A DNA stretch of 64,000 nucleotides from an uncultured virus (IMG/VR IMGVR_UViG_3300042867_001762) (lineage: Duplodnaviria; Heunggongvirae; Uroviricota; Caudoviricetes). Positions 21,376 through 63,657 of the stretch are shown here, one piece after another. The stretch is taken from IMG/VR virus record IMGVR_UViG_3300042867_001762; one strand, given 5' to 3'. The position numbers were made by a program, and so were the translations under genes. Positions within the stretch are counted from its first letter, which is position 1; each line of letters begins with the position of its first letter. The notes beneath the pieces were generated by a model. The model saw nothing but the letters and a program-made list of their open reading frames with translations. It was not told the origin of the DNA and ran no database searches.

Positions 21376-21406
21376 AACATCCTTTGCCGTGGTTCGGGGT
21401 CGTCCT

Positions 21407-45393: not shown

Positions 45394-45454
45394 GCTTTGC
45401 TCCAAAATTCTTAGAGAAAGTTGCCTCTCTAGATAATGTCAGCCGTTGTACGGA

Positions 45455-46820: not shown

Positions 46821-47102
46821 GCCGTCTCCTTGTCGTCGCCGGGGTCAGGCAGATTCATGATGCACCCCTTCGGTCCCGGTGTGTGATTCGTCATCATGGT
46901 TTCACCCCTTGCACCAGCATATGGTAAATACCAAGGGACACGAGGGCGAATGCACAAGTAATCGCGGGGTAAAATAACCGCGCCCACCAGATAACCGCCC
47001 ACCGCTTGGCCTCACCCCCAAGGGCGAAGCACAGTACAGCAAGTAAGGCGTCGGCAGCAATGACCGGCAGCGCCAGCGAGACAACAGCGGCAACAAGCGG
47101 GC

Positions 47103-47672
47103 TCATGACTTCACCTCTTCTTCATAGTGCTGCACCAGCAGGGGTAAACTAGACCGGATCACGTCCATGACCTCCTCCGCCCGTCTGACCTTGCGTTCCA
47201 AGAACTCAAGACGTGCGATAGCAGCGGCATGTTCGCTCGCCAGACACCACCGACCGGCGATGGGGGCGGAGGATTCAAGGATATCGTAGGCACCCTCGAC
47301 CCACTGAGTGTGTTGGCGGCTGGTTTCGATGACGATGTCTCGACCAGTCGTCAACGTCTCCCGCAACTGCGCCACCATCTGCTCGGCGTCGTCACGCTCG
47401 GCGCGGGCGATGGCACGCTGGGTATCCATGTGCGCGCACGCCTTCTCTGACGAGCGCCACAACATGCGGGCTGCTTCGGCGTCGTCGACGAGCATCTCGA
47501 CCATGCCAGTCGACTTGTCGAGTTCCTGTCCGTAGTTGTCGCGCTCAATCGTCCGCTCCTTCGCCAACGCCTCCGCTGCGTCACGCTGGACGGTGAGGCT
47601 TTCGATGAGTGCAAGAGCGCCAGCGAGGTCGGCGGGTAGGCGGATAGCGTTGTCGGTCAGTGGTTTGCTCAT
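47103..47672 (-). CDS. coiled-coil hypothetical protein
   Basis: MSKPLTD..., ERD heptads. Confidence 0.7.
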   Translation of the reverse strand: MSKPLTDNAIRLPADLAGALALIESLTVQRDAAEALAKERTIERDNYGQELDKSTGMVEMLVDDAEAARMLWRSSEKACAHMDTQRAIARAERDDAEQMVAQLRETLTTGRDIVIETSRQHTQWVEGAYDILESSAPIAGRWCLASEHAAAIARLEFLERKVRRAEEVMDVIRSSLPLLVQHYEEEVKS

Positions 47673-47961
47673 GGTTGCTCCTTGAGCCACAGCATTGCCA
47701 ATGGCGATGGTTTTGATTTATTTTTTTGGAGGACTGCATCTTCGTCGGCGTATCGGTCGAATACTTGTACGCTGTAGCCAGGCTCTCGCGTTGGCTTTCG
47801 ATTGTAGTATTCCGGGCAGTAGGTTCCGTCGAAACCACCACCGCCTTCGTACTCATCGAGTCTGTCAAAGATCATGTGTCTCCCGGACAAAAAACTCACC
47901 GGCTGTCGGTGGCTCGCCGCTCAGGATCGGCGGTCCCCGGCTTTAGGACCGGGGCGGGCTG

Positions 47962-48318
47962 TCACTCCTGTTCAAGAGCAGCCTTGCACCAAGCTGTCAC
48001 GTCAATGTATGTGCCATCGGCCTCACGGATATTGACAATCTTTTTTTGTTCTACTAGGGATTGAATCACTTCACGCAAGCGCTCGTTATCATCTCGTGCT
48101 TCGTTGCGCTCACGGTGCATTTCCAACAGCCCATAGCGGGCTTCGTCGCGCTCAAACCACGCCGTGGCCCGTTCTCTCAGAAGACGTTCGCTCTCGGCGC
48201 GCAGGCGTTCGATCTCTTGCACCAGCCATACAACGTCGTCTTTTCCCCATGGAACAGACATAGGCAGCGTGTATGGTATGTTCCACTTTTCTTTGATCTC
48301 GTCGAGTAAATCATTCAT
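47962..48318 (-). CDS. coiled-coil hypothetical protein
   Basis: DVVWLVQEIERLRAE, ERDEAR. Confidence 0.65.
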   Translation of the reverse strand: MNDLLDEIKEKWNIPYTLPMSVPWGKDDVVWLVQEIERLRAESERLLRERATAWFERDEARYGLLEMHRERNEARDDNERLREVIQSLVEQKKIVNIREADGTYIDVTAWCKAALEQE

Positions 48319-48342
48319 GATTTTCTTCTTTCGCTCGGATCA

Positions 48343-48723
48343 TTATGACTTGCCCTTTGCTTTGGCAATAGCGATGCCTGCTGCTTGAACAGCATCGACA
48401 TAATACCCAAAGCCATCTCCCTCGCCTGCGTCTGCACAGCTTTGTGCCTTTAGCAGTAGTTCACAGGCGGCTAGCAGATCGGGAGCGGCAGCAGCGAGTA
48501 GGGCATCACTCTCCCTGCACTTGAGATAATAGCCGGTCCAGCCATTGTAGTCAATGTCAATAGGACCAATCGCTTTAGGCAAGCGCCATAGCACATCTCC
48601 AGCCTGAATATCTTTCCCGTGTTCTTCCTTTGCGTAGATAACATCCGCTTCATTGGCGTGCAGCGTGTACCAGTCAATGTGCCAGCCATTCTCGTCGGCC
48701 TCTAGGAAATCATCAATCTTCAT
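48343..48723 (-). CDS. AAPDLL family hypothetical protein
   Basis: DALLAAAAPDLLAAC...AIAKAKG. Confidence 0.65.
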   Translation of the reverse strand: MKIDDFLEADENGWHIDWYTLHANEADVIYAKEEHGKDIQAGDVLWRLPKAIGPIDIDYNGWTGYYLKCRESDALLAAAAPDLLAACELLLKAQSCADAGEGDGFGYYVDAVQAAGIAIAKAKGKS

Positions 48724-49176
48724 GGCTCATCTCTGGTTCGGTCAAGAGTATTTAGGGCGTGAATAAAAGCGTCGACAAGTTGTGTGCTGCCGTTGTCCTC
48801 TAAAGGGGCAGCATCCATCAACCGCTTTAGTGCCGTTCGCAGGCGTTCATTATCTTCGCGCAGAAGTTTCGCCTCGAAATGGGCAGCATCCCGCTCCTCG
48901 ACAATGCTTGTCAGACGGTCATCAGCAGCGGTCATGGATTATCCTTATGAGACTGCCTATCTTCCGGCACCTGCTGCTTGCCACACTCCCGGCAAACCGA
49001 CATCTTGAATAGTGCCAGACAAAAGGAATACTCGGGAGGCTCGTGCAGATAGCGCAAGCAGGTTCCACAATAAGGGTAATCGTTGTATTCGCTCATAGCT
49101 CTCCCGGTAAAAAGCGCACGTTTTTTTGCGGAACGTGCAAACCACTTGCTGTCCGTCGGCAGCAACCGATTACTTG

Positions 49177-49782
49177 TCAGCGACGAACCGAACGTGGCTT
49201 CCAGTTGGCGTCAAAGACACGGGTAGTGGTATCACCCTTGGGGCTCATAACAGTCCGGCTAACCGTGTCAGCGCCAACGTCCGCCCAGTCATCGCTCTTG
49301 CGGCGGCGGAACACAGCCTTGGGAAAACGATTGGGAATCTTATTGCCAGTTTCAGGGTCACGGGCCTCGCAAGTATTCCAGCTCTGCAACACGCTGTTGT
49401 ACTTGCAGAAAACACGGTGGCCGTTGGCGTGCTGGATAACCCGGTGGAGCTGGCCACGGTCACCACGCATACCACTCATAGGATTGCCGGCATCACGGGC
49501 GTAGCCTTCCCAGAGGATAAACTTGCCGTCAAAGTCCGGCTCGCGGCTAATCGGCGTAACAAAGTTCAGGATTTCTGGACATTCAACAATGTCATCATAG
49601 CGGACGGCCAGAGCCGACACCTTGCCATCCAGGTGCTGTTGGAGGATAGCCTGCACACGGGCAGCCTCAGTAATCTCCTCGATGACAGCACGCAGATTCT
49701 GCATGGCAGCAAAGCTGGCGCTCAGATTGCCACCGGTACGATTGCGGATAGTCTCACCAATCTGCGGGATACGCTCGGTCAT
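49177..49782 (-). CDS. hypothetical protein
   Basis: First gene after the motif at 49818, GGAG RBS. Confidence 0.7.
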   Translation of the reverse strand: MTERIPQIGETIRNRTGGNLSASFAAMQNLRAVIEEITEAARVQAILQQHLDGKVSALAVRYDDIVECPEILNFVTPISREPDFDGKFILWEGYARDAGNPMSGMRGDRGQLHRVIQHANGHRVFCKYNSVLQSWNTCEARDPETGNKIPNRFPKAVFRRRKSDDWADVGADTVSRTVMSPKGDTTTRVFDANWKPRSVRR

Positions 49783-50127
49783 ACTGACTCCGTTGTTGGG
49801 GTGTGGCGGTCGACCTACAGGATCGGGCGGCACCGGCTTTAGGCCCGGCCCCCTCAGTCATGGGCTGGTATCAGTCGATCACGAAAGAGGGAGAAAAGAT
49901 TTGTGAAGTTGACATAGCGGCGCTGCGTGTTGACGCCGATGACATCTGCAAATATACCACAGCAAGGGCAACCATAAACCCGCAATAGTCCTTTACGAAT
50001 GCGGCGCTTACGACCTTGCCGGTAGGCAAGTGCCACCTTTAGCTATCCACTAATGGCGGCATCTGCCTGTGCCGGACTAAGTGCCAATGCTCGTCCGGCA
50101 TGAACAATAGGCTTGCTCATGTCATTC

Positions 50128-50589
50128 CTAGAAGCGATCAGACAGGTAAACAAAGTCGGGATTTTCTTCCCCGTCCTCGTTTATCTCCAGATCATTATCA
50201 GTCATGTCCCGGCATTCATCGCCAGTCATGCGTCCTTTGGCAAAAGTAGCACAGCCATTGAAACACATACCAGGCTCCTCATAGAGATGGCGGATCTCCA
50301 GGCTGGGAAAGCGATCTGCCAGCCGGCCGGTGACGCCAAGTGACGGAGCCCAAGCTGTGTCAAAGGTCAGAGTAATGTGATCATCAGAATCCCGGCTAAT
50401 AGAGAAGCCGGTGGCATCCCACTTGGTGCCCCAGTTGGTAGTATTCCAATCATACCAATCCTCGTCAGGCGGACGGGGAAAGATAGCAGCGAATGGCTCG
50501 TCGGTATTGCAGAGTAGGGCCATGACCCCATCCATGTCAGCGGTGCTGTTGGAAGAAATCTCGACAATGTTACCACACCAGTTAGGCAC
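50128..50589 (-). CDS. DUF1281/YubB ferredoxin-like domain protein
   Basis: (M)PNWCGN...WYDWNTTNWGTKWD...FDTAWAP...YEEPGMCF. Confidence 0.8.
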   Translation of the reverse strand: MPNWCGNIVEISSNSTADMDGVMALLCNTDEPFAAIFPRPPDEDWYDWNTTNWGTKWDATGFSISRDSDDHITLTFDTAWAPSLGVTGRLADRFPSLEIRHLYEEPGMCFNGCATFAKGRMTGDECRDMTDNDLEINEDGEENPDFVYLSDRF

Positions 50590-50639
50590 AGGATCTCCGG
50601 GGTTACAGGTTACAGGATCGGGATAAACCGTCTTTAGGA

Positions 50640-51134
50640 TCAGGCAGCCCGGCGGGCAGCCCGGATCTTTAGCCAACGCTCAAGGCCTTCGGCATCACGG
50701 AAAAAGTATTCCTCGACAAACCAAAAGTTGCGAATAAGACCAGCATCATCCTGCTTGACATAGGTAGGAACACCGAGCATAATAGCGCAGGCATTGTGCA
50801 AGTAAGCGTAGTTGACGCTATACTTTTTGCCGGGAATAATATCCCAGTGATCAGACGGCTGACCTTCGGGAATCAGGACAAGCTCTAGCCCGTCATTCTC
50901 AGTAATACGCCCATTGAAAAAGCTATACAGAGTGCGAACAATAACAGCCGGGTCATTCAGGTCCGGCATGGCATCCGGGCGGCTTTCCCGAACATGATTA
51001 GCAACGGCCTCAGAAATAGCATTGGCAACATGCAGGGTCCAAGAGAAATAGTCTACCATCATGTCATAGCGACCGGGAGCAAAGTCAGCCGGCTTGAAGT
51101 TAGCGCCAAGCATTTCCGAAAAAGACTTATGCAT
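50640..51134 (-). CDS. hypothetical protein
   Basis: MHKSFSE..., GGAG RBS. Confidence 0.65.
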   Translation of the reverse strand: MHKSFSEMLGANFKPADFAPGRYDMMVDYFSWTLHVANAISEAVANHVRESRPDAMPDLNDPAVIVRTLYSFFNGRITENDGLELVLIPEGQPSDHWDIIPGKKYSVNYAYLHNACAIMLGVPTYVKQDDAGLIRNFWFVEEYFFRDAEGLERWLKIRAARRAA

Positions 51135-51153
51135 GTTGTCTCCTGTCAGGGCT

Positions 51154-51462
51154 TCAGCGACGGCGGTTGATGGTAGCGGCAAACCCAGTCCACAGCGCGT
51201 CTTCAAAGTCCTTCAGAGCAAACAGGTGGATACCACGACCACGGATGCCCGCATCCTCCTTCAACTGACAGACAGGCTCAATGCAAAAAACTCGGCGAAC
51301 ATCGTCAGGCTCTTGGTCTGCCATGTAGGTAGCGAACGCACCACCCAGCAGTACATTCTGTGCCATCCAGGCATCACGGGTGCTAGGAGCACGCATCCAA
51401 GTACGAATCTCCGACAGGCTGCCGGTATGAGCGGGCTTCTCACCAACAATAGGCAGGGTCAT
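51154..51462 (-). CDS. hypothetical protein
   Basis: First gene after the motif at 51492. Confidence 0.6.
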   Translation of the reverse strand: MTLPIVGEKPAHTGSLSEIRTWMRAPSTRDAWMAQNVLLGGAFATYMADQEPDDVRRVFCIEPVCQLKEDAGIRGRGIHLFALKDFEDALWTGFAATINRRR

Positions 51463-51577
51463 GGCGTCTCCGGGGTTTGCGGTTCGTCCTACAGGATCGG
51501 GGGACACCGGCTTTAGGACCGGCGCTACTGTTAGATCCACCGCATCCTGTATGCTGCGGCGGTTCGTCGGTCGTCCC

Positions 51578-52072
51578 TCAGGATCGGCCGGACCCGACTT
51601 TAGGCCCGGCCCCGATTGTCACGATTGCCATATTCTTTAGCTTATCAGCGGCAGCCTTATAGCTAACCTTCATACTCTCTATTTTCTCTACCTTCAATCG
51701 GATTATTTCCTTTATGCTTTCCCTGTCTAATGCGGCATTAGAACCCAGATCAAATGGATACAAAAGAGTGAAGTTCTTTTTCAGAACTCTTTTTGGAGAC
51801 TTTACCCACACCATGATAGAGTAAATGATTCCTGTGCTGCTAGGAAAGGCAGAAGGATCTGGCCATATCCTATGCTCGTACCAAGCAAACAGGGGTATAG
51901 TAACCTTGAAGACTTTATGATTATGGTTATTGCAGGCAACAATATATTTTGTTATCTTACGCAAATCATCAGGATGCAGCAGCGGGACAAACTCTGGTCT
52001 GCTCTCTGTTAGTATAGATATAGCTTCTTCGCTGGATCTTGCATAAGACAGCGCGACTTTGTCAAGTTTCAT
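51578..52072 (-). CDS. hypothetical protein (MKLD start)
   Basis: MKLDKVALSY...; AT-rich; tail GPKVGSGRS encoded by a motif copy. Confidence 0.65.
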   Translation of the reverse strand: MKLDKVALSYARSSEEAISILTESRPEFVPLLHPDDLRKITKYIVACNNHNHKVFKVTIPLFAWYEHRIWPDPSAFPSSTGIIYSIMVWVKSPKRVLKKNFTLLYPFDLGSNAALDRESIKEIIRLKVEKIESMKVSYKAAADKLKNMAIVTIGAGPKVGSGRS

Positions 52073-52328
52073 GACAACTCCATACAGCGGCATACCCGGC
52101 TTTAGAGCCGGCGCGGGTCAACTAGCAGCTGTCTAATACTTAGTACAGCTGTAATACCGGCATCAAGAGAGGTTTTAGCTCCCGGTGGGTGGTGGCGGTT
52201 CCCTTGGTATCTTTTGCCCATTATTCTTCAGACGGGTAAACGCTGCAAAGCGGTTGTCTGCCGGCAATAGGCCAGCCGCTCTAGGCACAAGAAAAAGAGA
52301 GAAGAAGCAAACAGCGGGGCAACCGGGA

Positions 52329-52695
52329 CAGGATCAGGGCACACCGTCTTTAGGACTGGAGCGAGTCTAGAAAAAAGAAAATGCTAACAGGATCAGGCGA
52401 GTATGTTTTTAGGACCGCGTGAAGTTGACAAAAAGACAAAGGGCGACAGGATCAAAAGAATCTGTTTTTAGGACCGGCGCGTTTCACATAGAAACAAGTA
52501 TATAGACACACACAGGTCAAACCGATACAGGATCACAGATCCCCGTCTTTAGGACGGAGCAAGGGCAGAGGATTGCAGGCAATCGGCAAACCCCTACAGG
52601 ATCAGCAACACCCGTCTTTAGGACCGGAACGCTGCAATCCTCTGCCTGACAGAGGGGCAACTGTATCAGGATCAGAAATCGCTGTTTTTAGGACC
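52329..52695 (-). repeat. tandem array of six motif copies with unique intervening sequence
   Basis: Copies at 52329, 52388, 52447, 52528, 52597, 52667 (periods 59, 59, 81, 69, 70); no credible gene. Confidence 0.85.
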
Positions 52696-52725
52696 GGAGC
52701 ACACAACGCGCGCGCGAATAGATCG

Positions 52726-54228
52726 CCCGCCCCCGGTTGTCCCGTTGGCAGGTGTGTTGCAGGTTGTAGGTACCGGGGAGAGTCGCCCCTCCCCGGTAGT
52801 GGCTTCAATCAAGCCAAAACAAGCCTTTTTCTAACCAGCTACAGGCAGCATGCATGGCCCGTGCCCTGTCCGCTTCGAGCGGCGCAAAGCGGGCACATTG
52901 AAAGGCCATCGCAATACACTCCGTCCACGTAGGCTCGACGTCAGGACGGCTAGGAGGAAGTTCCAAAAAGCGCAGCATTATTGCCACCTGTGTAGGGGTA
53001 AGCTGTCATTCTAACAGGAAAGGGAGCCGGGTTATCCCGGCCCCCACCTGCCTGCCTCACTTCAGCTTGGCGACAGCTTCAGCGAGACGGTCAGCCAGCC
53101 GGAGAACCTCGGCACGGCTAGCCTCGGTACCAGCGGTCCCGGTACCATCCACCTTGACAGAGAGCTTATCAGCGTTCTCCCGGAGAAACGCCACTCCCTT
53201 GTCGGTCATGATGAGGTCCAGCGCAATCCCCACAAAGTGGGGAGCGTAGACCGTGACAGGAAAGCGAGCGGACACACCGTAGATGCTGATAGCACCCTTC
53301 TCGCTGGCCTTGGCGGTGTAACCACGCGCCTCGCCCTTAGTCTTGGTAGCAGCATCGGCACGGGCCTTCTCTGCTGCCAGCGCAGCCTCGGCAGCCTTGA
53401 GACGCTCCATGAGAGCTGCCACATCCGGGCTGACAGAGGTGACGGTGTTGTTGGCGACGGGGGTTCCGACCTTGATGAGCGACATGATGCTCTCCCTGTA
53501 TTTAGGCTCCACGAGATACCCGACCACCGGGTATAACGCTTCACCTTTGCGGCTATGTAGTGGGCCGCCGTTCTGCTCTACAGGATCGGCGGACCCCGAC
53601 TTTAGGACCGCCGCCCCCTGTCAAGAAAAACTGCTTTCTAGCAGGTACTATCTAGCAACCTACCAAGCATCCCTATCAACGCGCGCGAGACAATAGCTAT
53701 CCAGCAAGCCCGGGCGGCCTGCTAAAGATTATAAAGTTATCTCCCAGCTCTCTACCGTTAGGGAAAGCCAGAATCAGTAAAAGCACAACAGGATCACACA
53801 ACACCGTCTTTAGGACTGAAGCCGCAATCCTAATAACAGATAGAAAAGATCCTGCAAACATTGCATCAGCATTACAAAGCCACTAGGCACACCGCACCCG
53901 TCCCCGGTTGTCCCGTTGACGCAGGTTACAGGATCGGCGGACTCCGTCTTTAGGACCGCCGGCCCCTGTCAGCTATCATAAAACGCAAAAACAAAACGGA
54001 TCTTTTGTCCACATAACTAATCCACCGGATACACCTCTCCCCGCCCCCGACTATAGCGTTGACGCGTAACAGGATCGGGAGAAGCTGTTTTTAGGACCGG
54101 CACAATAAAAAGGGGCATAAACTTTGCAGGCAATCCCGGTCCTAAAAACGGGCTTTCCCGATCCTGTTATTGTTCCCCGGTTTTTTCTTGCAATCGACGC
54201 ACCTATCCCGCCCCCGGTTGTCCCGTTG
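52726..54228. repeat. 22-bp direct repeat CCCG(C/T)CCCCGGTTGTCCCGTTG, three copies
   Basis: 52726-52747, 53897-53918, 54207-54228; partial copies near 54314 and 55058. Confidence 0.75.
53057..53485 (-). CDS. SEKGA-family protein, copy 2
   Basis: MSLIKVG...KASEKGAISIYGVSARFPVTVYAPH. Confidence 0.85.
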   Translation of the reverse strand: MSLIKVGTPVANNTVTSVSPDVAALMERLKAAEAALAAEKARADAATKTKGEARGYTAKASEKGAISIYGVSARFPVTVYAPHFVGIALDLIMTDKGVAFLRENADKLSVKVDGTGTAGTEASRAEVLRLADRLAEAVAKLK

Positions 54229-54457
54229 ACCCGTCTGTCAGGATCGTCGGCGTATGTTTTTAGGACCGACGACCGGACTGCCCCGCGCCGGGCAATAAAA
54301 AAAGGAATAGTTCGCCCGCCCCGGTTTGTCACCAGAGTACGTCCTACAGGATCAGGCGAGTATGTTTTTAGGGCCGGTGGCGAACCCGGCGGGTCCGGCC
54401 GGGCGCCGGTCGCCGGAAAAGGGGCAGGCGGGTCGCCCCGCCCACCCCCGGCCCGCC

Positions 54458-54901
54458 TCACTTCAGGCGGGCAACCGCACCGGCCAGCCGGTCTGCGAGG
54501 CGCAGCACTTCCGCCCGGCTCGCCTCCGTCCCGGCCTGCCCGGTGCCGTCCACCTTGACAGACAACTTATCCGCGTTTTCACGCAGGAAGTTGACCCCCT
54601 TATCCGTCATGATAAGGTCAAGGCACACCCCGACAAAGTGCGGGGCATACAGCGTGACAGGGAAGCGGGCGCTAACCCCGTAGATGGAAACCGCGCCCTT
54701 TTCCGATGCCTTCGCAGAATAACCCCGCGACTCCGCCTTGACCTTTTCAGCGGCGTCGGCGCGGGCCTTTTCCGTCGCGACCGCAGCTTCCGCCGCTGCG
54801 AGGCGGGCCATGAGCGCGGCAATGTCAGGAGACAGAGACGGCGCCGTGACGGGCGTGGCAACGGTGGCGGCGACAGGGGCGGGGAGCTTGATAAGCGACA
54901 T
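54458..54901 (-). CDS. SEKGA-family protein, copy 3
   Basis: MSLIKLP...KASEKGAVSIYGVSARFPVTLYAPH. Confidence 0.85.
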   Translation of the reverse strand: MSLIKLPAPVAATVATPVTAPSLSPDIAALMARLAAAEAAVATEKARADAAEKVKAESRGYSAKASEKGAVSIYGVSARFPVTLYAPHFVGVCLDLIMTDKGVNFLRENADKLSVKVDGTGQAGTEASRAEVLRLADRLAGAVARLK

Positions 54902-55207
54902 GGCTTGTATCCTGCGTTCTAGCCTATCCGCAACCCCCGACCATCGGGCGCTGCGTCATCGGCGCTGCGTCGCGGCGTCGTCGCCGGGACACCCTACAAG
55001 ATCAGGGGAAGCTGTTTTTAGGACCGGTGGCGACCGCGCTTTTCGGACAATAGGACGCCCGCCCCCGGACTCGCCGTTGGCCCTTGCAGATAAGTTTTGC
55101 AATCTTTTAGCCCCGCATGGCACACCTCCCACGTATGCGGGACAAGATCAGAGGAGTATGTTTTTAGGCCCGGTCCGGAGTCAGGTGCCCCCCCGGCACC
55201 CCGTCCC

Positions 55208-55408
55208 CTAGCGGACGTCCGCCAGCGCCCGCAGCATCTCGGCGCGGCGGGTCAGGTACTCCCGCCCCGTCATTTCCAGATTGCAGCGTTCCGCCGCCCA
55301 TCCCCGCAGCGCCCACGGGGCGCGGGCGAGCGCCGCTTCCATCCCGCCCTCGCGGGCGTTCACCGTCGCGTTGCCGTTGCCGTCAATCGCAATCTCCGTC
55401 ACCTGCAT
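55208..55408 (-). CDS. cassette gene, hypothetical
   Basis: Motif + GGAGG + ATG. Confidence 0.7.
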   Translation of the reverse strand: MQVTEIAIDGNGNATVNAREGGMEAALARAPWALRGWAAERCNLEMTGREYLTRRAEMLRALADVR

Positions 55409-55503
55409 GCAGCCTCCGTTGTGGCACCTATCAGGATCAAAAGTTTATGTTTTTAGGACCGGCCGGACTCGGGACCGGAGCTAGGCCCCGGTCCGTTGTC
55501 CGC

Positions 55504-55797
55504 TCACTCGTATCGCGGGCGCTGCCGGCTCTGCCATTCGGCGAGTGCTTCCGGGTCCCGCGTGCGGCGGACTTCTACATCGGTCCCGCCGAGAACCGAG
55601 AAGCGGTCATGACGCGGCGCGTAATGCGCTTCCTCGCGTTCCAGCCGCCGGGCAAACCGGCGCGCCCGGCGCGGGTTGTCAAAAGACCACGCCTTTTCTA
55701 CATTCGACCAGTCGAACCACCAGCCGCCTTCCTCATGCCCGCCAAAGTGGCGGGAGGTTGAAACGACTGCCACGAAAACCTGCTCGCTGCTGCGCAT
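55504..55797 (-). CDS. cassette gene, hypothetical
   Basis: FGGHEEGGWWF...RPRYE; motif + GGAGG. Confidence 0.75.
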   Translation of the reverse strand: MRSSEQVFVAVVSTSRHFGGHEEGGWWFDWSNVEKAWSFDNPRRARRFARRLEREEAHYAPRHDRFSVLGGTDVEVRRTRDPEALAEWQSRQRPRYE

Positions 55798-55881
55798 CGT
55801 CGCCTCCGTGTCTAACAAGATCAAAAGAATCTGTTTTTAGGACCGGCTCAGCAAAGAACCCCGCGCGTGCGGGGCCGGACC

Positions 55882-56175
55882 TCAGTCCGCGAGAAGCTGC
55901 GCCTCAAACTGGTAGGCCAGTGAGCTGCTTTGATAAGCGTAGCTGCCGACATAGCGGCGACTGACTTCCGCCTGTACCTGCGCCGCCGTCAACGGCGGGA
56001 ACACCTTGACGCCTCCGGTGTTGGCGCCCATCTCCCCCGACTTTTCAGTCAAGGCACCTAGGATGCCCCGGTCCCGGTCAACGAACACAACTTCGCCGGA
56101 AGGGCACTGCATAGCCACGATGCGTTGACCATGGGGACCATAAAGACGACCGGTGTTGAAGTGAACCTTGGACAT
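55882..56175 (-). CDS. cassette gene, hypothetical
   Basis: FNTGRLYGPHGQRI...FVDRDRGI. Confidence 0.75.
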   Translation of the reverse strand: MSKVHFNTGRLYGPHGQRIVAMQCPSGEVVFVDRDRGILGALTEKSGEMGANTGGVKVFPPLTAAQVQAEVSRRYVGSYAYQSSSLAYQFEAQLLAD

Positions 56176-56366
56176 AGCTGCCTCCTGCTAGTTGGTTTCG
56201 TTCCGGCTTCTGCTATACAGGATCAGAGGAGTATGTTTTTAGGACCGGTCGCGAGCCAGGTGGGGCTGGCGCCCCAGCCGGTCACTCGTCGTCGCGGTCC
56301 CGGCGGACTCGCCCCCGGCACGCCCGGCGTTTCGATTCCGCCTTGCGGTCGCGCATGACCCCGCCT

Positions 56367-56558
56367 TTACGGGTTAGGATCATCTGCAACAAGATTGCGT
56401 TTCGCGGCTTCATAGGCTACCCTCGCACGGCGGCGCGTGTCCGCCAGAAAATAGTTTTTCTCGTATGAATGCACCGCATGACCGGACACCGGCGCATAGC
56501 CGGGCGGATAATGCGGCGGGGCGAACAACGCCCGGAGCGTTTGTCGGAGCCGTTCCAT
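56367..56558 (-). CDS. cassette gene, hypothetical
   Basis: Motif + GGAGG + ATG. Confidence 0.6.
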   Translation of the reverse strand: MERLRQTLRALFAPPHYPPGYAPVSGHAVHSYEKNYFLADTRRRARVAYEAAKRNLVADDPNP

Positions 56559-56637
56559 CGTGCCTCCCGGCTATCAAGATCGGCCCGGTATGCTTTTAGG
56601 ACCGGGAAGGAAAGGGGCAGGTGTCCGCCCCGATCCC

Positions 56638-56820
56638 CTAGTTGTGAGCGTAGCCGTGGTGAGGTGCGATACCCGCCCACACCAGTTCGGCTAGATAGCG
56701 GTTGTTGAATACGAGCACCCCGCCGGGGAGTCCGCGCACTGCCCAGTGCCCGATCTCGCCGGGCAGGAACTCCCCGGCATCAACGTGTTCCTGATCAATG
56801 CAAAAGAAAAGCTCTTTCAT
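56638..56820 (-). CDS. hypothetical protein
   Basis: GGAGG RBS. Confidence 0.6.
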   Translation of the reverse strand: MKELFFCIDQEHVDAGEFLPGEIGHWAVRGLPGGVLVFNNRYLAELVWAGIAPHHGYAHN

Positions 56821-56838
56821 GCGCAGTCCTCCTACCCG

Positions 56839-57033
56839 CTAATCGCGGTGGTCGCGGGTCTCGTCCGCTTCGAGCATCATCGCACGGTGCTCCCATGCAC
56901 GTTGCAGGGCGGCAACATAGACGGCAGTCGACGGTGCATGCTCGCTTTCCCGGCGCATCCGGGCATAGTCCGGGGGTGCACAGTCACACGCAGGGCGTTG
57001 CTTACAAGTAGGGCAAGAAAACTTGCTTTTCAT
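56839..57033 (-). CDS. cassette gene, small Cys-rich protein
   Basis: CPTC...CDC; motif + GGAGG. Confidence 0.65.
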   Translation of the reverse strand: MKSKFSCPTCKQRPACDCAPPDYARMRRESEHAPSTAVYVAALQRAWEHRAMMLEADETRDHRD

Positions 57034-57134
57034 ACCGGCCTCCGTTGTGCTTATCAGGATCAGGTAAGTATGTCTTTAGGACCGGGGCCGGAAGGAAAGG
57101 CCGGGGGATTTCTCCCCCGACCCGCCCCGGACGG

Positions 57135-57527
57135 TCACACCTTGCGGATAGCATGACCAGTCAGGACCAGCCCGATGCCGTCGGGCACCTGCACCCCGGA
57201 GAACAGGGCGGCAGCTTCCGTCCCCCGGATGGTAAGGCCGAACCGGGTGCCCCGGCGGTCGACAAGGCCACGGCACCGGAGACAGGACAGCGCCCGCTCC
57301 ACGTTGGAGACCGGGATGCCTTGCGTTTCCGCAATCTCAGCGGCAGTAGCAGCCCGACGCCCGCGCCGGGTTGCCTTGCGGCGGGCAATATCTGCGAGGA
57401 TGGCCGTTTGACGCGGCCCCGGCGTGGTGGTATTCCCATAGTTAAGGCTTGACAGCTTGCCGACAAGCACGTCAGCAGCGGCACGGGAAAGAGCAAGGGT
57501 GAGGGAACGAGCAGACTGCTTGCGCAT
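57135..57527 (-). CDS. cassette gene, winged-HTH-like DNA-binding protein
   Basis: ATAAEIAETQGIPVSNVERALSCLRCRGLV...LTIRG. Confidence 0.7.
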   Translation of the reverse strand: MRKQSARSLTLALSRAAADVLVGKLSSLNYGNTTTPGPRQTAILADIARRKATRRGRRAATAAEIAETQGIPVSNVERALSCLRCRGLVDRRGTRFGLTIRGTEAAALFSGVQVPDGIGLVLTGHAIRKV

Positions 57528-57648
57528 CGCGTCTCCATTCGCGGCGTTTGTTTCGTCGTCGCCGCTTGTCTAACAGGATCAAAAGAATCTGTTTTTAGGA
57601 CCGGCGGGGAAGGAAAGGGCCGGGCGAACCCGGCCCCCTTCCTACCGT

Positions 57649-58161
57649 TCACGCCTTGCGGGTGACCCGATCAAGCTCATCGGCAAGGCTGCGCACTGCC
57701 GATTCCGAAGCACCCGTGCCCGCCTGGCCCGTGCCGTCGACCTTGACCGAAAGCTTCGCCGCATTCTCCCGGAGGAACGCCGACGCCTTGCCGGTCATAA
57801 CCAGATCACGGATGATTCCCACGAGGTGGGGAGCGTAGAGCGTCACCGGGAACTTGGTAGAGACGCCGTAGATCGAGATAGCGCCCTTCTCCGACGCCTT
57901 CATGCTGTATCCACGGCTACCGCCACTCGCCGCACGGGCAGCCTCGGCCGCATCGGCCCGGGCCTTCTCTGTAGCGAGCCCCGCCTCGGCCGCCGCAAGC
58001 CTCGCCATAAGAGCCGCAATGTCCGGGCTCGTGCTCGTCGCAGCGACCGGCGCCGGGAGAGGCATCGGCGCCATAGGGGCGGGCGCCGTCACACGGGGAG
58101 CGGGGAGAGCAAGGGTGTTGCCAGAGTTGCCGGTGTTGGAACCAAACTTGATGAGCGACAT
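57649..58161 (-). CDS. SEKGA-family protein, copy 4
   Basis: MSLIKFG...Pro-rich linker...KASEKGAISIYGVSTKFPVTLYAPH. Confidence 0.85.
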   Translation of the reverse strand: MSLIKFGSNTGNSGNTLALPAPRVTAPAPMAPMPLPAPVAATSTSPDIAALMARLAAAEAGLATEKARADAAEAARAASGGSRGYSMKASEKGAISIYGVSTKFPVTLYAPHLVGIIRDLVMTGKASAFLRENAAKLSVKVDGTGQAGTGASESAVRSLADELDRVTRKA

Positions 58162-58343
58162 TGTGCTTTCCCTTTTGTTTCTAGGGCCTAGCGTACCGCC
58201 GACCACCGGCGCTACGTTTAACCCGTTATGTGCGGCGCATCGTATCGTTTCGTCGCCGCCGTTCTGTCTAACAGGATCAAAAGAATCTGTTTTTAGGACC
58301 GGTAGGCTCGGGTCCGGGGCTACGCGCCCCGGCCCGTCACCCG

Positions 58344-58610
58344 CTAGTCTTCGAGCGCCCGGAGAATCGCCACCGCGTTAGCGGGACGGTTGGCGCGGAC
58401 CACCGCCGCAACCCAGTGGTTGCGACCCGTCTCGCGGCCGGCGAGGTGGCACACCTGCTTGAACCAACCCACCCGGCCCCGGTTCTCCACCGGGTAAGCG
58501 ACCGAGCGGTCGCCCCGGGCGATGCCCGCCGCACTGGCGAGCACGTCCAACCCGTCGTGCTGCGCGGCGAGAACGCGAACGTTGCGAGCTTCCTTCTTTG
58601 TCAGCTTCAT
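58344..58610 (-). CDS. cassette gene, hypothetical
   Basis: Motif + GGAGG + ATG. Confidence 0.7.
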   Translation of the reverse strand: MKLTKKEARNVRVLAAQHDGLDVLASAAGIARGDRSVAYPVENRGRVGWFKQVCHLAGRETGRNHWVAAVVRANRPANAVAILRALED

Positions 58611-58705
58611 CGTGGCCTCCATGTCTAACAGGATCAAAAGAATCTGTTTTTAGGACCGGGGAGGAGAGGGGCGGAGCCGGGTGAACCCGGCCCCCGCCCG
58701 GACGG

Positions 58706-59014
58706 TCATGCCGTCTCGGTAAGGTCAAGCTCCGAGACGAGCGCTTCGGTATCCCCGTCGCCCATGACAATCCCGTACCGGGTGCCGGCGGGCAGGCGCG
58801 TCACCCGCAGGAAGTCGGTTGACGGGACCTCATAGTCCGCCACTTCCGGGTGGAGGTCGATGAGACGAGCCGCAAAGGCGTCGTCGTCGGCCGCCTCCAC
58901 GGCCGCGACCAGTACCGGGTCACGGCGCAGGCGGGCAAGAGCGCCGGCCTCCACCCCCTCGATTTCGAGGGTGCCGTAGTCGGTAGAGAGAATAATGCCG
59001 ATGACGTTGGTCAT
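58706..59014 (-). CDS. cassette gene, hypothetical
   Basis: RRDPVLVAAVE...LPAGTRYGI. Confidence 0.7.
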   Translation of the reverse strand: MTNVIGIILSTDYGTLEIEGVEAGALARLRRDPVLVAAVEAADDDAFAARLIDLHPEVADYEVPSTDFLRVTRLPAGTRYGIVMGDGDTEALVSELDLTETA

Positions 59015-59170
59015 GCTAACCTCGGGCAGGGCGGGCCGGCAGGAGCGCCGGGAACCGCTGGACACCTATCAGGATCAAAAAGTTATGTTTTTAGGACCGA
59101 TGACGCCCGCAAAAAAAGACAAAAAAACCCCGGCTGATTAGGCCGGGGCCGGGCGAGGCCCGCTGTGAGG

Positions 59171-59581
59171 CTAGCTCTCACTGTGACAAACACATCCCCA
59201 CCCTGCGCAGGAGTGAGTATCTTCGAGCACGTCGTCCGGCAGGAACGCCCCGCGCCCGTCAAGAGCTTCCTCGACTTCATGACGGAACAGCATGCAGGCG
59301 GCCACGTCCTCCAACGTGTAGACGTATCCGACTTGCGGGTTGCGGCCCGGCTGAAAGCGCACGGTCCCCGTGCGGAAGGGGCGCACGCCTTCAGACTCCA
59401 TCCCGCCGAAAGCGGCATGGATATTTGGGAGAGCGGCCCAGAGCCGCTCGAATCCCGCACGGTCCCCACGAAACAGGAGCTTGCCGTTAACGTAGAACTC
59501 CAACGCCCGGCCCACGTCCGACGGGAAATCGATGCCAGCGAGACGAATGTCAAGGGCGAGAGAGCGCTTTTGCGAAGCCAT
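59171..59581 (-). CDS. cassette gene, hypothetical
   Basis: Motif + GGAGG + ATG. Confidence 0.7.
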   Translation of the reverse strand: MASQKRSLALDIRLAGIDFPSDVGRALEFYVNGKLLFRGDRAGFERLWAALPNIHAAFGGMESEGVRPFRTGTVRFQPGRNPQVGYVYTLEDVAACMLFRHEVEEALDGRGAFLPDDVLEDTHSCAGWGCVCHSES

Positions 59582-59725
59582 GCTATCCTCCGTTGTGCGG
59601 CCCGTGCCGCCGTTCCGATGTCTAACAGGATCAGAAATATCTGTTTTTAGGACCGCTGCCAGGTTCGAGACCTGGCAAAAGAAAAGCCCCGGCGGGGCCG
59701 GGGCGGTGGAAGGGTGGGCGGCGAA

Positions 59726-59983
59726 CTAAAATAGTTCGTCGCCGATGATAGCGAAAGCTTCCGACGCGGAAAGACAACCGGCGTCCCACTGCTCGCGGGC
59801 CTCAGCGGGCAGGCGGGCGAAAAGGCCCGCCTCCGTCATGAGCTTGGCAAGGCCGGCATCGACGCCGCACCAAGCGGCGCGGTCAGTTCCGTAGCCCGCG
59901 CGGCGCGCGGCAGCCGCATCGCGGTCGGCGCGCCGGAGCGCGACGATGTTGGATCGGGCAGTGAGGCTGTCGTTGTTGTTCAT
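59726..59983 (-). CDS. cassette gene, probably leaderless
   Basis: ATG only 6 nt after GATCTTG, no RBS. Confidence 0.6.
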   Translation of the reverse strand: MNNNDSLTARSNIVALRRADRDAAAARRAGYGTDRAAWCGVDAGLAKLMTEAGLFARLPAEAREQWDAGCLSASEAFAIIGDELF

Positions 59984-60315
59984 GCTTATCAAGATCAAAA
60001 GATAATGTTTTTAGGACCGGGCAGGTTCGGGACCGGGGATGCGACTCCCCGGGCCGGGACGGCTAATCCTCCGTCTCGATCTCCCGGCGCTCGGAACGCC
60101 GGACGGCCCGCGCCGTCTTGCGCTTGACGGCCGCCTTGCCCCCGCCGCCACGGGGACAACACCCCGGGCACAGGCAAAGCGCGTGCCCGAAGTTTCCAGC
60201 GATGCGAATCCGAACCGATTGAGCCATGCTGACCTCCGCCTATTAGGATCAGAAAAGAATGTTTTTAGGACCGGTCCGGCTCGGCACCGGGGACAAGCCC
60301 CGGCCCGATTCCTTA

Positions 60316-60528
60316 TCAGTAGCCCGCTTGCCGGAGCGCCCGCAGCGCATCGGAGTGGCGCAGGAGCCTTTGAATACTTGTCATGTCCATCTCGGCTATC
60401 GCCGCCCGGGCGCGGTGGGCCTCCCATCCGACCGTGGCCAGCGTACCGGGGAGCCCCATCGGAGCCATGGCCGTCAGCTTGCTGCCGTCGGGAAAGGTCA
60501 CCGTCATCTTGCCAGCCTTGTCTTTCAT
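60316..60528 (-). CDS. cassette gene, hypothetical
   Basis: Motif + GGAGG + ATG. Confidence 0.65.
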   Translation of the reverse strand: MKDKAGKMTVTFPDGSKLTAMAPMGLPGTLATVGWEAHRARAAIAEMDMTSIQRLLRHSDALRALRQAGY

Positions 60529-60928
60529 CGCTGCCTCCGTGACTAACAGGATCAGGAAAGAATGTTTTTAGGACCGGCGAGAAAGGGGGCACCGGCCCCG
60601 GAGACTAACCCGCCATCCCGTAGAACAAGACGGGATAGACGAACACGAGAACAAACATACCGGCAAGGAAGAAAAACGCATCGGCAGCATCGCGGCGGGT
60701 CATACTCACCTCTTGCCTATCAAGATCAAAAAAGAATGTTTTTAGGACCGGCGGAAGGCGGGCGGGGGATTGCTCCCCCGGTCCGCTAGTCGCGGCGCTT
60801 TTCCCTTCGGCGGGCATCCCACGAGCGGGGACGACCCTTTGTCGGGCGGGGCGACTCACCCGCCGGGCGGCCCCGGCCCATGCGGGCGGGGCGGTTATCG
60901 GTTTCGTCGTCAGGGATGTTCCACGGCT

Positions 60929-61243
60929 TCACAGCCCCACCCCCGGCTTGCGGACCGTGACCGTGGCATCGGCCACCGGCAGCCCGGCAGCTTCGCAGTC
61001 CCGGCGGATAACCGCCGGAATCTCGCGGCGGTTGAAGCCACGGCGTACCATCGCCGTTTCCAACTCTCCGGCGAGGTTGGCCAGTGCCTCCACCACCGGC
61101 CCGGCGTCGCCGCCGATGGCGAGCAAGGCAAAGGCGAGATCCGTGACCTGATCTGCACGGGCAGCCAGGCCCGCGTCCCCGGCCCGGCGGGCCATGGCAT
61201 TTACGATTCCAATGCGAACAGAGAGGGTCGTTTCGGTACGCAT
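60929..61243 (-). CDS. cassette gene, hypothetical
   Basis: Motif + GGAGG + ATG. Confidence 0.7.
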   Translation of the reverse strand: MRTETTLSVRIGIVNAMARRAGDAGLAARADQVTDLAFALLAIGGDAGPVVEALANLAGELETAMVRRGFNRREIPAVIRRDCEAAGLPVADATVTVRKPGVGL

Positions 61244-61346
61244 GTTGCCTCCTGCGGCGTGTTGTTTGCCGCTCTGCCTATCAGGATCAAAACTTTCTGT
61301 TTTTAGGACCGGCCGGGGAAAGAGCCCGGCCGGCGCCGGGCATCTC

Positions 61347-61814
61347 TCACCCCTCCCACGGGGCGCGGGCGTTCAAGCACGCTTCCGGGGTGAGGTCCGG
61401 CTCCCACCGGGCCAGCATCCCCTCGATTGCGGCGAGGGGAACCCCGTGAGAGTTACGGGCGGCGCACTCCGCCGCGTCCCGCCCCCACGGCGTGCGCGGC
61501 TCGACGAACTGCACCCTGTATCCGTGGAAGGTCGCGGCGCGGACATATTCCCGCGCCTCCCATCCTTGAGTCATAGTGTTGTCCACGATGACGTGGGTAA
61601 CACCGGCTTCCATCGCCTCCGCCGTGCGGCGGAGGTTGGCCGCGTGGTGGGCCCCGAGCTTCGACCCGTCGAAGCGGTACTCGCCATCGACCATGAAAAA
61701 ATCATCTGTGGAAAACACGGGAGCCGTCTCGACGCCCGGGACGTTGGCGAGCACCTTGGCAAGGGTGCTCTTGCCGCTACCGGGGACGCCACGCATAATC
61801 GTCAGGGTCTTCAT
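61347..61814 (-). CDS. P-loop kinase, N4BP2/polynucleotide-kinase-like, copy 2
   Basis: IMRGVPGSGKS, STDDFFMVDGEYRFD, VDNT, RNSHGVP. Confidence 0.85.
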   Translation of the reverse strand: MKTLTIMRGVPGSGKSTLAKVLANVPGVETAPVFSTDDFFMVDGEYRFDGSKLGAHHAANLRRTAEAMEAGVTHVIVDNTMTQGWEAREYVRAATFHGYRVQFVEPRTPWGRDAAECAARNSHGVPLAAIEGMLARWEPDLTPEACLNARAPWEG

Positions 61815-61928
61815 CGTATCCTCCGTGCCGGTTTGTTTCGTTCCGGCTTCTGTCTAACAGGATCAAAAGATAATGTTTTTAGGACGGGTGACGAGCCGGG
61901 CAGCCCGGTCGATTGACCGGGGAGCCGC

Positions 61929-62261
61929 TCACGCGGGACGGCTCAAGCCCCGGCAGCCAACCGGCTGACCATCGGGGCCGCGCACAAGCGCCCCGGGGGA
62001 AAGGACGTCGGTACGGCCCCGCACCGCCGGGTGTCCGGCGACGAGGCCGGAGACAACCCACGTCACGCCGGGGGCCGGCGCGGGGAGGCCGACGACCTCC
62101 CCGAAAGAGGTTTCGAAAATCTCCACGCCGTCGACGACGGCGGCCACGGCCGTCTTTGTCGCCACGCGGGCGACGGTCCCGTCGGCGGGCAGGACGAGCG
62201 CGGGCGCGCCCGCTTGGTCGACGACGGTGATGGTGTGGGGGGTCAAGTTCACAAACGCCAT
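61929..62261 (-). CDS. cassette gene, NLTPH-type hypothetical protein
   Basis: FVNLTPH...VARV...GLP...VS..VA...RTD. Confidence 0.75.
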   Translation of the reverse strand: MAFVNLTPHTITVVDQAGAPALVLPADGTVARVATKTAVAAVVDGVEIFETSFGEVVGLPAPAPGVTWVVSGLVAGHPAVRGRTDVLSPGALVRGPDGQPVGCRGLSRPA

Positions 62262-62401
62262 GCGAGCCTCGGGTGTTGCGGGTTGTTCTGACGCCTAACA
62301 GGATCAAGAGAGAATGTCTTTAGGACCGGCCGGGGCCGGGAAAGAAACGCAGAAAACGGCAAGGCCCCGCCTTGCTGGCGGGGCGGGGCGATGGGCGGGA
62401 G

Positions 62402-62611
62402 TTAGTTCCCGCCGCAGTGATAGCAATCGTGCCCTTGCCGGGAGCTGCACTCCCCGCTAAGCGGGCCATTGTCGGTCCCGCAGTAGTAGCAGATGTCCCG
62501 GCCCGGGGTGGGCCGCAGGCGCCACTCGGGAGTGGTGGCGGTGGGGGTCTCGGCCTTGTCGGCGGCCGAAGCCGCGCTCAGGCGCTCAAACATGCAGTCA
62601 TAGCTAGACAT
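62402..62611 (-). CDS. cassette gene, small Zn-finger
   Basis: CYYC...CYHCGG. Confidence 0.65.
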   Translation of the reverse strand: MSSYDCMFERLSAASAADKAETPTATTPEWRLRPTPGRDICYYCGTDNGPLSGECSSRQGHDCYHCGGN

Positions 62612-62749
62612 ACTGCCTCCGGGTGTTGCGGGTTGTTCTGACATCTAACAGGATCAAAAAGAAATGTTTTTAGGACCGGCCGGGGCCGGGAAAGAAAAGC
62701 GGAAAAGCGGAAACCCCGCCGGGTTAGGGCGGGGTCGGGGGGGCGGGGG

Positions 62750-63112
62750 TCACCAGTAAACCGGGTGCCCCCAGACGGAGTAGGAAACTCCGTCTTCGTC
62801 TTGGAGGACCTCGTCCCCCAGGGGATAGTAAGCGGGGTCGTTGACCACCTCCTCCGCGCGGGCGGGGGTGATGCGCCCCCCCTCGACGAGGGGGGCGAGG
62901 ATTGCCCCCTTTCGGGCGGCGGCGTCGCCGCTGGCCGCCCATGCGGCGGCGGCGGCTCCGTAGGCGGCTGCTTCGCCGCCGTCACCGTAGGCGGCGGCGG
63001 TGGTGGCGGCGAGGTCGGCGTCTTCAGCCGCTTGCGCGGCGAAGGAGAGGAGGGCGTGGGCGCGCCCGATGGCGGCGTTGACGGCGGCGGTGGTGGCGCG
63101 GGTGGTCTTCAT
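62750..63112 (-). CDS. cassette gene, Ala-rich hypothetical
   Basis: Motif, GAGG RBS, MKTTRAT. Confidence 0.65.
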   Translation of the reverse strand: MKTTRATTAAVNAAIGRAHALLSFAAQAAEDADLAATTAAAYGDGGEAAAYGAAAAAWAASGDAAARKGAILAPLVEGGRITPARAEEVVNDPAYYPLGDEVLQDEDGVSYSVWGHPVYW

Positions 63113-63264
63113 GGTTGCCTCACAGACAGGGGGAAGGGGTTGACGGACTGGACCCTGTCTCGACATACAAGATCAAAAAGAAATGTTTTTAGGACGGGCC
63201 AGGCTCGAGACCGGGCAAAAGAAAACCCCGGCAGGGCCGGGGCGAGAGAAGCGGCGGGCCGGGT

Positions 63265-63525
63265 TCACCGGAGCGGGCGGGCCGCGCCACCCATACGGGC
63301 GCGCATCGCCCGGATGCGCTCCGCTACCAACTCCGCTTCCGTCGGCGGGGGCGGAGGGGCGTCAAGCACCCCCACCACCACCGTACCGTCGTCGAGCTGC
63401 CCCCGATGAATGCGGGCCGCCTCAGCGTCACCGGCCTCGCTGTAGGCGGCCCGCAGACGGGCGGCGATGACCGCCGTGCGGACGGCGGTGGCATCAACGA
63501 TGGTAGCAGTGCGGCGGATGGTCAC
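63265..63525 (-). CDS. cassette gene, hypothetical
   Basis: Motif + GGAGG + GTG. Confidence 0.6.
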   Translation of the reverse strand: MTIRRTATIVDATAVRTAVIAARLRAAYSEAGDAEAARIHRGQLDDGTVVVGVLDAPPPPPTEAELVAERIRAMRARMGGAARPLR

Positions 63526-63657
63526 GGCGGCCTCCAAACGGGACTGGATTGTCCCGCGCATCAGGATCAAAAGATAATGTCTTTAGGACCGGCCGGGGCC
63601 GGGAAAGAAACCCGGAAAAGCGAAAGCCCCGGCAGGGCCGGGGCGATTCACTACGGG

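Follow-up and report, generated by a model that had tools for sequence, protein, structure and literature searches.

Six gene-less copies of a gene-upstream element, a putative stack of early promoters, in an uncultured tailed phage

Described systems that resemble the array

The gp28-dependent middle promoters of phage SPO1 are an example of a promoter class that depends on a phage sigma factor. Here we describe a locus that bears comparison with such promoters and with several other phage arrangements, an array of six short bipartite repeats in a stretch of 64,000 nucleotides (nt), hereafter the window, from an uncultured lake virus of the class Caudoviricetes (IMG/VR record IMGVR_UViG_3300042867_001762). 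The window matches, as its reverse complement, part of a phage record of 371,675 base pairs (bp), hereafter the record, whose ends overlap by 127 bp, as in a circular assembly. A pattern search of the window's plus strand places CAGGATC-N13-TTTAGGAC six times within positions 52329-52694. The repeat is the same element that stands singly ahead of dozens of the phage's genes, and we argue below that the six repeats are probably six intact, co-oriented and gene-less copies of the phage's own early-gene promoter, a reading to which we assign a probability of roughly 0.6.

Two described phage systems come closest. PeSL/PmSL cassettes (promoter-early stem-loop) occur in T4-like phages (Arbiol et al. 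2010, PMC2839356; Comeau et al. 2014, PMC4122927), and in the sections of these papers available to us they appear as short units of stem-loop or terminator, promoter, Shine-Dalgarno sequence and start codon that precede many small ORFans in a plastic region; clustered, degraded or multiple copies mark sites of gene gain and loss (PMC4122927). The locus shares with them the short cassette ahead of small ORFans, the clustered, degraded or multiple cassettes and a phage with T4-like replication genes. The layouts agree only in part, since a terminator-like site precedes 10 of 30 copies of the class to which the array belongs, most copies stand before a Shine-Dalgarno sequence and start codon, and the array copies carry neither such a hairpin nor a gene. 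Moreover, the PeSL promoters are described in those sections as near-consensus sigma-70 or MotA-box promoters, whereas the element here is dissimilar to both and keeps an unvarying 13 nt between its blocks; about 37 of the genes that the family serves lie outside the ORFan island; and the available sections of PMC4122927 describe no row of six intact orphan promoters. The early promoters A1, A2 and A3 of phage T7 (bioRxiv 10.1101/2021.08.23.457391) are, as far as the available part of that preprint goes, a co-oriented stack in a gene-free leader, followed by early genes directed at the host, and the array has the same arrangement. Where at least three co-oriented promoters in a gene-free leader mark the T7 type, the array would hold six within 366 nt, if the element is a promoter. 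In T7, however, three host sigma-70 promoters lie at a defined genome end, whereas the six copies here are not of the sigma-70 type, belong to a circular assembly and lie amid a promoter-rich region instead of at its start. The array thus resembles T7 A1-A2-A3 in its proposed working and PeSL in its evolution, and it is a member of neither, its promoter type being different.

A layout of two repeats and two spacers also recalls guide-RNA arrays, and an earlier note on this DNA had remarked on a superficial likeness to TIGR and had included a small-RNA array among its readings. TIGR arrays, in the portion of the source available (Faure et al. 2025, PMC12045711), are built from two repeats of 8-12 nt that take turns, separated by spacers of 9 (up to 12) nt, in units of about 36 nt next to a Tas gene with a Nop domain. 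The likeness is that a phage carries several successive units in which two short conserved blocks take turns with two variable segments, and each of the six units could in principle yield an RNA of 59-81 nt from a promoter of its own, with the unique segments as guides. The sizes do not agree, however, with blocks of 7-12 nt, segments of 13 and of 31-53 nt, the latter unequal, and units of 59-81 instead of 36 nt, and the blocks also stand singly before genes. The Nop domain (PF01798) was not found at E <= 0.1 in the six frames of the whole record, in a search to which four archaeal control genomes responded. For CRISPR, which we judged by near-identical repeats of 25-36 nt, unique spacers of regular size and cas genes in the genome, the comparison fares no better. 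Only 21 of about 28-34 positions are conserved, the spacers of 31-53 nt are irregular, the repeat occurs singly before dozens of genes, and PADLOC found no Cas effector in 80 of the 89 proteins of at least 300 amino acids, the other nine large proteins and the small ones lying outside that scan; its only related match was a DinG-type helicase. The comparison of the unique segments with other sequences that the earlier note had proposed returned no match, whether from the rest of the phage genome or from a set of 50,697 phage records, and no terminators separate the units.

The array repeat is an element that stands ahead of genes

The inner spacer of the array is exactly 13 nt long in six of six copies, although the search pattern, CAGGATC-N(11-15)-TTAGGAC, allowed 11-15 nt. 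Four of the 13 positions are semi-conserved and about nine are free, so that the earlier note was right about the length of this segment and only partly right to call it variable. The outer spacers measure 31, 31, 53, 41 and 42 nt, and the array sits in a gene-free gap of 963 bp (52094-53056). The longest open reading frames (ORFs) over it encode 47 amino acids (52517..52660, minus strand) and 119 amino acids (52573..52932, plus strand), the latter spanning copies 5 and 6 against the local gene direction; both are taken as spurious, and the earlier observation of six copies with no credible gene among them is confirmed. At 121 of 126 core positions the array copies carry the consensus of their gene-linked counterparts, whereas pairwise identity at the non-core positions is 0.39, and Tandem Repeats Finder does not call the array because only its cores are alike. 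The cores are thus intact and look selected or homogenised, and the sequence between them is free. Neither the unique segments nor the flanks recur elsewhere in the phage genome or in the set of phage records, hairpin-plus-T-run sites were not found between the copies, and T-rich tracts follow copies 1-3. The 20 sequencing runs found to contain the stretch include none of RNA; among the contigs of four DNA runs aligned to 47000-64000, one spans 52448-52835 without a difference.

Almost all genes of the record lie on one strand, from 350.8 kilobases (kb) round the junction to 348.7 kb, and this is the minus strand in the window. The element is therefore to be read on that strand as GTCCTAAA-N13-GATCCTG, or more fully as CGG-GTCCTAAA-R-A-C-R-N9-Y-GATCCTG. 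Within the window the exact pattern matches 28 times, always with a 13-nt spacer and only between 47.9 and 63.6 kb (27 on the plus strand and one on the minus), against 0.01 expected from dinucleotide-preserving shuffles. The strict form has 31 copies in the whole record, confined to 350.8-368.1 kb; 30 of them lie on the coding strand and the remaining one is inverted. With the shorter pattern CCTAAA-N13-GATCC the record holds 65 copies, every one on the coding strand and every one with the 13-nt spacing, and CCTAAA-N13-GATCY raises this to 75 copies on the coding strand and one on the other, with none in reversed-sequence controls; the window accounts for 56 of the last form on its minus strand and one on its plus strand. 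The six copies are not a self-contained or private array; they are members of a large family.

Members of this family are placed with respect to genes. A start codon preceded by a Shine-Dalgarno sequence lies no more than 60 nt downstream of 48 of the 65 copies of CCTAAA-N13-GATCC in the record, at a median distance of 36.5 nt, and 17 of the 28 exact copies in the window lie 16-55 nt ahead of a strong Shine-Dalgarno sequence (mostly GGAGG) with an ATG. The element stands singly ahead of most genes in the first 145 kb or so of the nearly one-directional gene order, and the served proteins are mostly small and of no known family (a Pfam hit for 5 of 34, a PHROG for 10 of 34, one of these with a named function). 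The family is nearly absent from 124-350 kb of the record, which carries the terminase, portal, capsid and tail genes, with one isolated match at 289 kb. It extends over 1884-63587 on the minus strand of the window and over the record from 350.8 kb across the junction to 123 kb.

Two classes can be told apart. Class I, to which the array belongs, covers 350.8-363.7 kb of the record; its consensus is cCGGTCCTAAAaACAt..tctt.TGATCCTGttagg and its spacer AT-rich. The range of class II extends from 364.4 kb across the record start to 123 kb; its consensus is CGG.CCTAAAGCCGG..ccgcCCGATCCTGaagg.CGa.c and its spacer GC-rich, and its copies typically lie 9-27 nt past the preceding stop codon or overlap the end of the upstream ORF. 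Class I serves the ORFan island and class II serves genes for replication and nucleotide metabolism, often forming a hairpin. In class I, a GC hairpin with a T-run is found in the preceding 85 nt for 10 of 30 copies; in class II the figure is 1 of 35, and for random places 24 of 300. As a general or defining feature of the element the hairpin was rejected, because a stem of at least 5 bp is formed by 13 of 37 class II copies but by only 1 of 37 class I copies.

A promoter reading, its factor and its rivals

The element is best read as a phage-specific bipartite promoter, with more than one candidate for the factor that recognises it. We infer this promoter nature from two conserved blocks at an invariant distance (65 of 65), a free 9-nt middle, co-orientation with the genes, a position shortly upstream of them (48 of 65), between genes and ahead of the ribosome-binding site, and the frequent terminator-like sites upstream. 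Since the shortest leaders are 16-18 nt, transcription would begin within a few nucleotides of GATCCTG, which would make GATCCTG the -10-like block and GTCCTAAA the -35-like block. Upstream regions of late and structural genes have other, AT-rich words, for example CTATTAAT, which suggests a separate late promoter class. The element resembles the SPO1 gp28 class in having a bipartite, non-host consensus before one temporal class of genes in a phage with sigma-like proteins; here the sigma-like proteins are candidates only, and the temporal class is judged from gene content alone.

The most likely reader is the host RNA polymerase with a phage-specified sigma factor or a factor resembling sigma region 4, and two proteins could fill this role. 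The first, of 262 amino acids, matches TIGR02937 (sigma-70 superfamily) over residues 50-248, corresponding to regions 2-4, with an E value of 3e-6, a match that falls short of the model's cut-off, and its Atlas neighbours carry Sigma70_r2. It is encoded at 1351-2136 of record piece L001 and has a zinc-ribbon-like insertion; the next ORF, of 2698 amino acids, belongs to no family found. The second, of 191 amino acids, combines a zinc ribbon with Sigma70_r4 (27.4 bits against a Pfam cut-off of 24.1), and its gene lies in the class II region of the window (21,283-21,855, minus strand), with the end of the ORF inside a class II element. A phage RNA polymerase was found neither among the 85 of 89 proteins of at least 300 amino acids scanned against PHROGs nor by Pfam on the large proteins, and a DFDGD motif is absent; a search with PF00940 was uninformative, its control being silent. 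The giant ORFs of 2698, 2397, 2056 and 1554 amino acids gave no informative family match, and neither the largest of them nor the 262-residue protein has a sequence match in the PDB. What PHROGs did recognise among the large proteins is a T4-like set for replication and recombination, with RIIA, topoisomerase II, UvsX, SbcCD, family B polymerase, DnaB, ribonucleotide reductase and RNA ligases. The words TAAA...CCGAT recall the sigma-28 consensus; their spacing is too short by about 5 nt, and the likeness is only a lead.

On the promoter reading, the six copies would fire leftward in window coordinates, through one another and through a leader of 256 nt, into the gene at 52072-51578 and beyond, so that the order of transcription would be copy 6 to copy 1, leader, and then the gene for 164 amino acids. 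Their combined rate of initiation would probably be high, as with stacked promoters elsewhere. The stack most likely arose by recombination and deletion among near-identical promoter cassettes, as described for PeSL cassettes (PMC4122927), with gene bodies lost and promoters kept, and it would persist because its cores are still in use. The outcome would be a promoter stack at the border between an island of ORFan cassettes with 64-67% G+C and the rest of the early region with about 51%.

Several observations weigh against the promoter reading. The element has no resemblance to TTGACA-N16-18-TATAAT, and none of the nine sites from a consensus scan of 51000-64000 falls on a copy, although the consensus of the host may differ. 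Most copies (20 of 30 in class I, 34 of 35 in class II) lack an upstream terminator-like site, so that a single long transcript with an RNA-level signal for each gene is conceivable, and several members of class II extend over the 3' end of the preceding ORF. CCTAAA occupies the loop of a GC hairpin of at least 5 bp in 13 of the 37 members of class II, and the mean stem of the class was equalled in 12 of 1000 partner-shuffling trials; such hairpins would suit an RNA or single-strand signal. For the array itself, the last copy lies 256 nt from the next start codon as against the family median of 36.5 nt, and the copies have profile scores of 14-43 bits, lower than most of the gene-linked copies (19-60, median about 53), because the array spacers and flanks differ. 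Finally, the motif is absent, save for one chance-like hit, from five large relatives with 55-59% capsid identity, so that relatives lend no comparative support to the promoter reading.

The capsid protein search returned 47 loci, the terminase is no more than 26% identical to those of cultured phages, the proteins flanking the array have no relatives among viral contigs, and no relative carrying the region was found. Across IMG/VR the exact motif gave one hit and the class II pattern four, all unrelated, and megablast and blastn against the 50,697 phage records gave no match. The whole genome of one relative yielded no comparable dyad motif. The absence of the motif from relatives points to a lineage-specific consensus, as would be expected if the reading factor were phage-encoded and co-evolved with its sites. 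A relative of 392 kb (capsid 57% identical) has, at 91.7-92.6 kb of its record, a CRISPR-like array of 14 repeats of 36 nt with spacers of 35-37 nt.

The best-surviving rival accepts the element as a promoter and regards the stack as purposeless debris of cassette turnover, a row of emptied cassettes whose cores have been homogenised by gene conversion. Copy 3 is identical over 32-34 nt with three gene-linked copies, the spacer of copy 2 equals that of the copy at 54347-54374, a second and nearly gene-less group with one inverted copy lies 900 nt away, the T-rich tracts after copies 1-3 resemble terminator tails that have lost their hairpins, and PeSL cassettes are degraded or multiple near insertions and deletions in the available sections of PMC4122927. 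Six of six near-perfect cores, with identity of only 39% elsewhere, nevertheless exceed what unselected relics would be expected to show unless gene conversion is frequent, and neither coding remnants nor known 5' leaders were found between the copies. We consider debris unlikely as the whole account. Together, a functional stack and debris are highly probable, and the good preservation of the cores gives the former a slight lead. Two joints in contigs of the DNA runs (51524>53932 and 58264>57567) coincide with copies of the element; because they have short sides (27 nt) or involve identical copies, they are possibly assembly ambiguities and no solid sign of variation in copy number. Among the readings that the earlier note had listed, stacked promoters and emptied cassettes are supported but unproven, the same element being found singly before dozens of genes between the end of the previous gene and the next Shine-Dalgarno sequence. 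It seems to us distinctly unlikely that the stack is a device in its own right, kept where the two promoter subclasses border on each other and read by a phage-specified factor with a rigid 13-nt spacing rule. Such a device would be a site where the factor or polymerase lands and loads, a six-fold transcription-primed origin of the T4 type, or a source of short regulatory leader RNAs.

The main alternative for the family as a whole is a signal at the RNA level, for processing, stabilising or translation coupling on long early transcripts; its reader would be an RNA-binding protein or nuclease of the phage or the host, and the array would be several such sites in succession within a leader. In its favour are, for class II, the near-complete lack of upstream terminator-like sites, the position 9-27 nt past the previous stop codon and the hairpins with CCTAAA in the loop. 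A lone RNA-binding protein would likewise account for the rigid spacing of 13 nt. Class I, however, to which the array belongs, almost never forms the stem, a third of its copies follow a hairpin and T-run that would end the upstream transcript, and the middle 9 nt vary freely, like the spacer between -35 and -10 blocks. On balance we think an RNA-level signal quite improbable.

It is very improbable that the stack serves as an origin where transcription primes replication, or that it sequesters the polymerase or its factor. The gene-free gap of 963 bp, the T-rich tracts after copies 1-3, an AT skew of +0.127 in 52-54 kb and the T4-like replication and recombination genes would be in keeping with it, and T4 origins pair a promoter with an unwinding element. 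The RNA produced here would be pyrimidine-rich, however, and such RNA makes poor persistent RNA-DNA hybrids; a better candidate for an origin or packaging region is a repeat-rich non-coding region of about 1 kb at 349.8-350.8 kb of the record. That region, just beyond the right end of the window, is flanked by a divergent gene on one side and by the first member of the promoter series on the other, and contains tandem repeats of 80 nt and of 10 nt.

The guide-RNA or small-RNA array is rejected as hardly credible: its repeat proves to be an ordinary gene-upstream element, its sizes do not fit, its unique segments are unmatched, and neither a Nop domain in the record nor a Cas effector in 80 of the 89 large proteins was found.

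Surroundings of the array and implications

The array lies at a border in base composition (Table 1). Upstream of it, in the sense of transcription, the DNA at 54-64 kb has 64-67% G+C, and a class I copy accompanies each of its small ORFan genes; downstream, the G+C content is near 51% and the copies are of class II. The island at 54000-64000, in a phage of about 50% G+C, consists of small family-less genes, each with an AT-rich promoter-like element and often with a terminator, and its composition suggests a foreign origin or a separate selective regime.

Table 1. Features of the array and its surroundings, in window coordinates unless noted
Feature	Position	Strand	Remarks
TPGPW...AAPDLL paralogues	45019-45405, 46509-46820, 48343-48723 (also record piece L003 484-5033)	-	
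First downstream gene, 164 amino acids	51578..52072	-	3' end reaches into next family element
Leader, last putative promoter copy to next start codon	52073..52328	-	256 nt; T-rich at start
Degenerate half-copy, CCGGC-TCTAAAG-CCGG hairpin	52101-52125		no GATCCTG; 30 nt ahead of downstream gene start
Array copy 1	52329..52356	-	last in transcription direction; GC-rich-spacer type; core match 19/21
Array copy 2	52388..52415	-	spacer identical to that of copy at 54347-54374; core match 21/21
Array copy 3	52447..52474	-	32-34 nt identical with gene-linked copies at 57574, 58272 and 58629; core match 21/21
Array copy 4	52528..52555	-	CTAAA loop enclosed by 5-bp stem (CCGTC/GACGG); core match 19/21
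Perfect 15-bp inverted repeat	52564-52578 / 52632-52646		brackets copy 5; dominant stem in minus-strand RNA fold
Array copy 5	52597..52624	-	core match 20/21
Array copy 6	52667..52694	-	first in transcription direction; core match 21/21
Gene-free stretch upstream of the array	52695..53056	-	terminator-like hairpins 53045-53022 and 52987-52972; X repeat 52747-52726
Upstream gene, 142 amino acids	53057..53485	-	one of three paralogues; no family found
Second, looser seven-copy group	53581..54374	-	coding-strand copies at 53581, 53789, 53929, 54070, 54239 and 54347; inverted copy 54139-54166
Gene-linked copy run	55017..63589	-	16-55 nt, once 110 nt, ahead of Shine-Dalgarno and small-gene start

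The product of the first downstream gene has no known family and no Atlas hit, and Rfam gave only two sub-threshold hits on 47000-64000, both outside the leader. The upstream gene is one of three paralogues of 142-170 amino acids (SLIK...YGVSARFPVT...LSVKVDGTG), all without a family, at 53057-53485, 54458-54901 and 57649-58161 on the minus strand, each with its own copy of the element.

The looser group of seven copies, upstream of the array, contains few or no genes and has a 22-nt sequence, the X repeat, in several of its units; this repeat occurs five times between 55079 and 52726. The units end in CC-T5-7-ATTG and could be small non-coding transcription units. Antisense pairing of the X repeat with the starts of the array units was considered and rejected, with duplex energies no better than those of shuffles (z from -1.8 to +1.3).

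Elsewhere in the early region, small TPGPW...AAPDLL proteins (phrog_1273, with weak DUF6745 matches) occur as multiple paralogues, and five tRNA genes (Gln, Leu, Ser, Met and Thr) lie among the early genes at 8595-31999 of the window, on the minus strand.

A practical lesson follows for the annotation of such loci, in that a layout of two repeats and two spacers can come from stacked bipartite promoters, and single copies upstream of genes should be looked for before a guide-RNA array is called. Orphan stacks would mark promoter cassettes that have been shuffled or emptied, and they would bear on how large phages gain and lose the small genes with which they take over their hosts. If the promoter reading is correct, some 75 copies with an invariant spacing and two subclasses would constitute one of the largest and most uniform promoter families seen in a single phage, and would provide a ready map of the early transcription units together with a defined DNA target for finding the factor that reads them. 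The main value of the locus would thus lie in this large and uniform promoter family and in the factor behind it.

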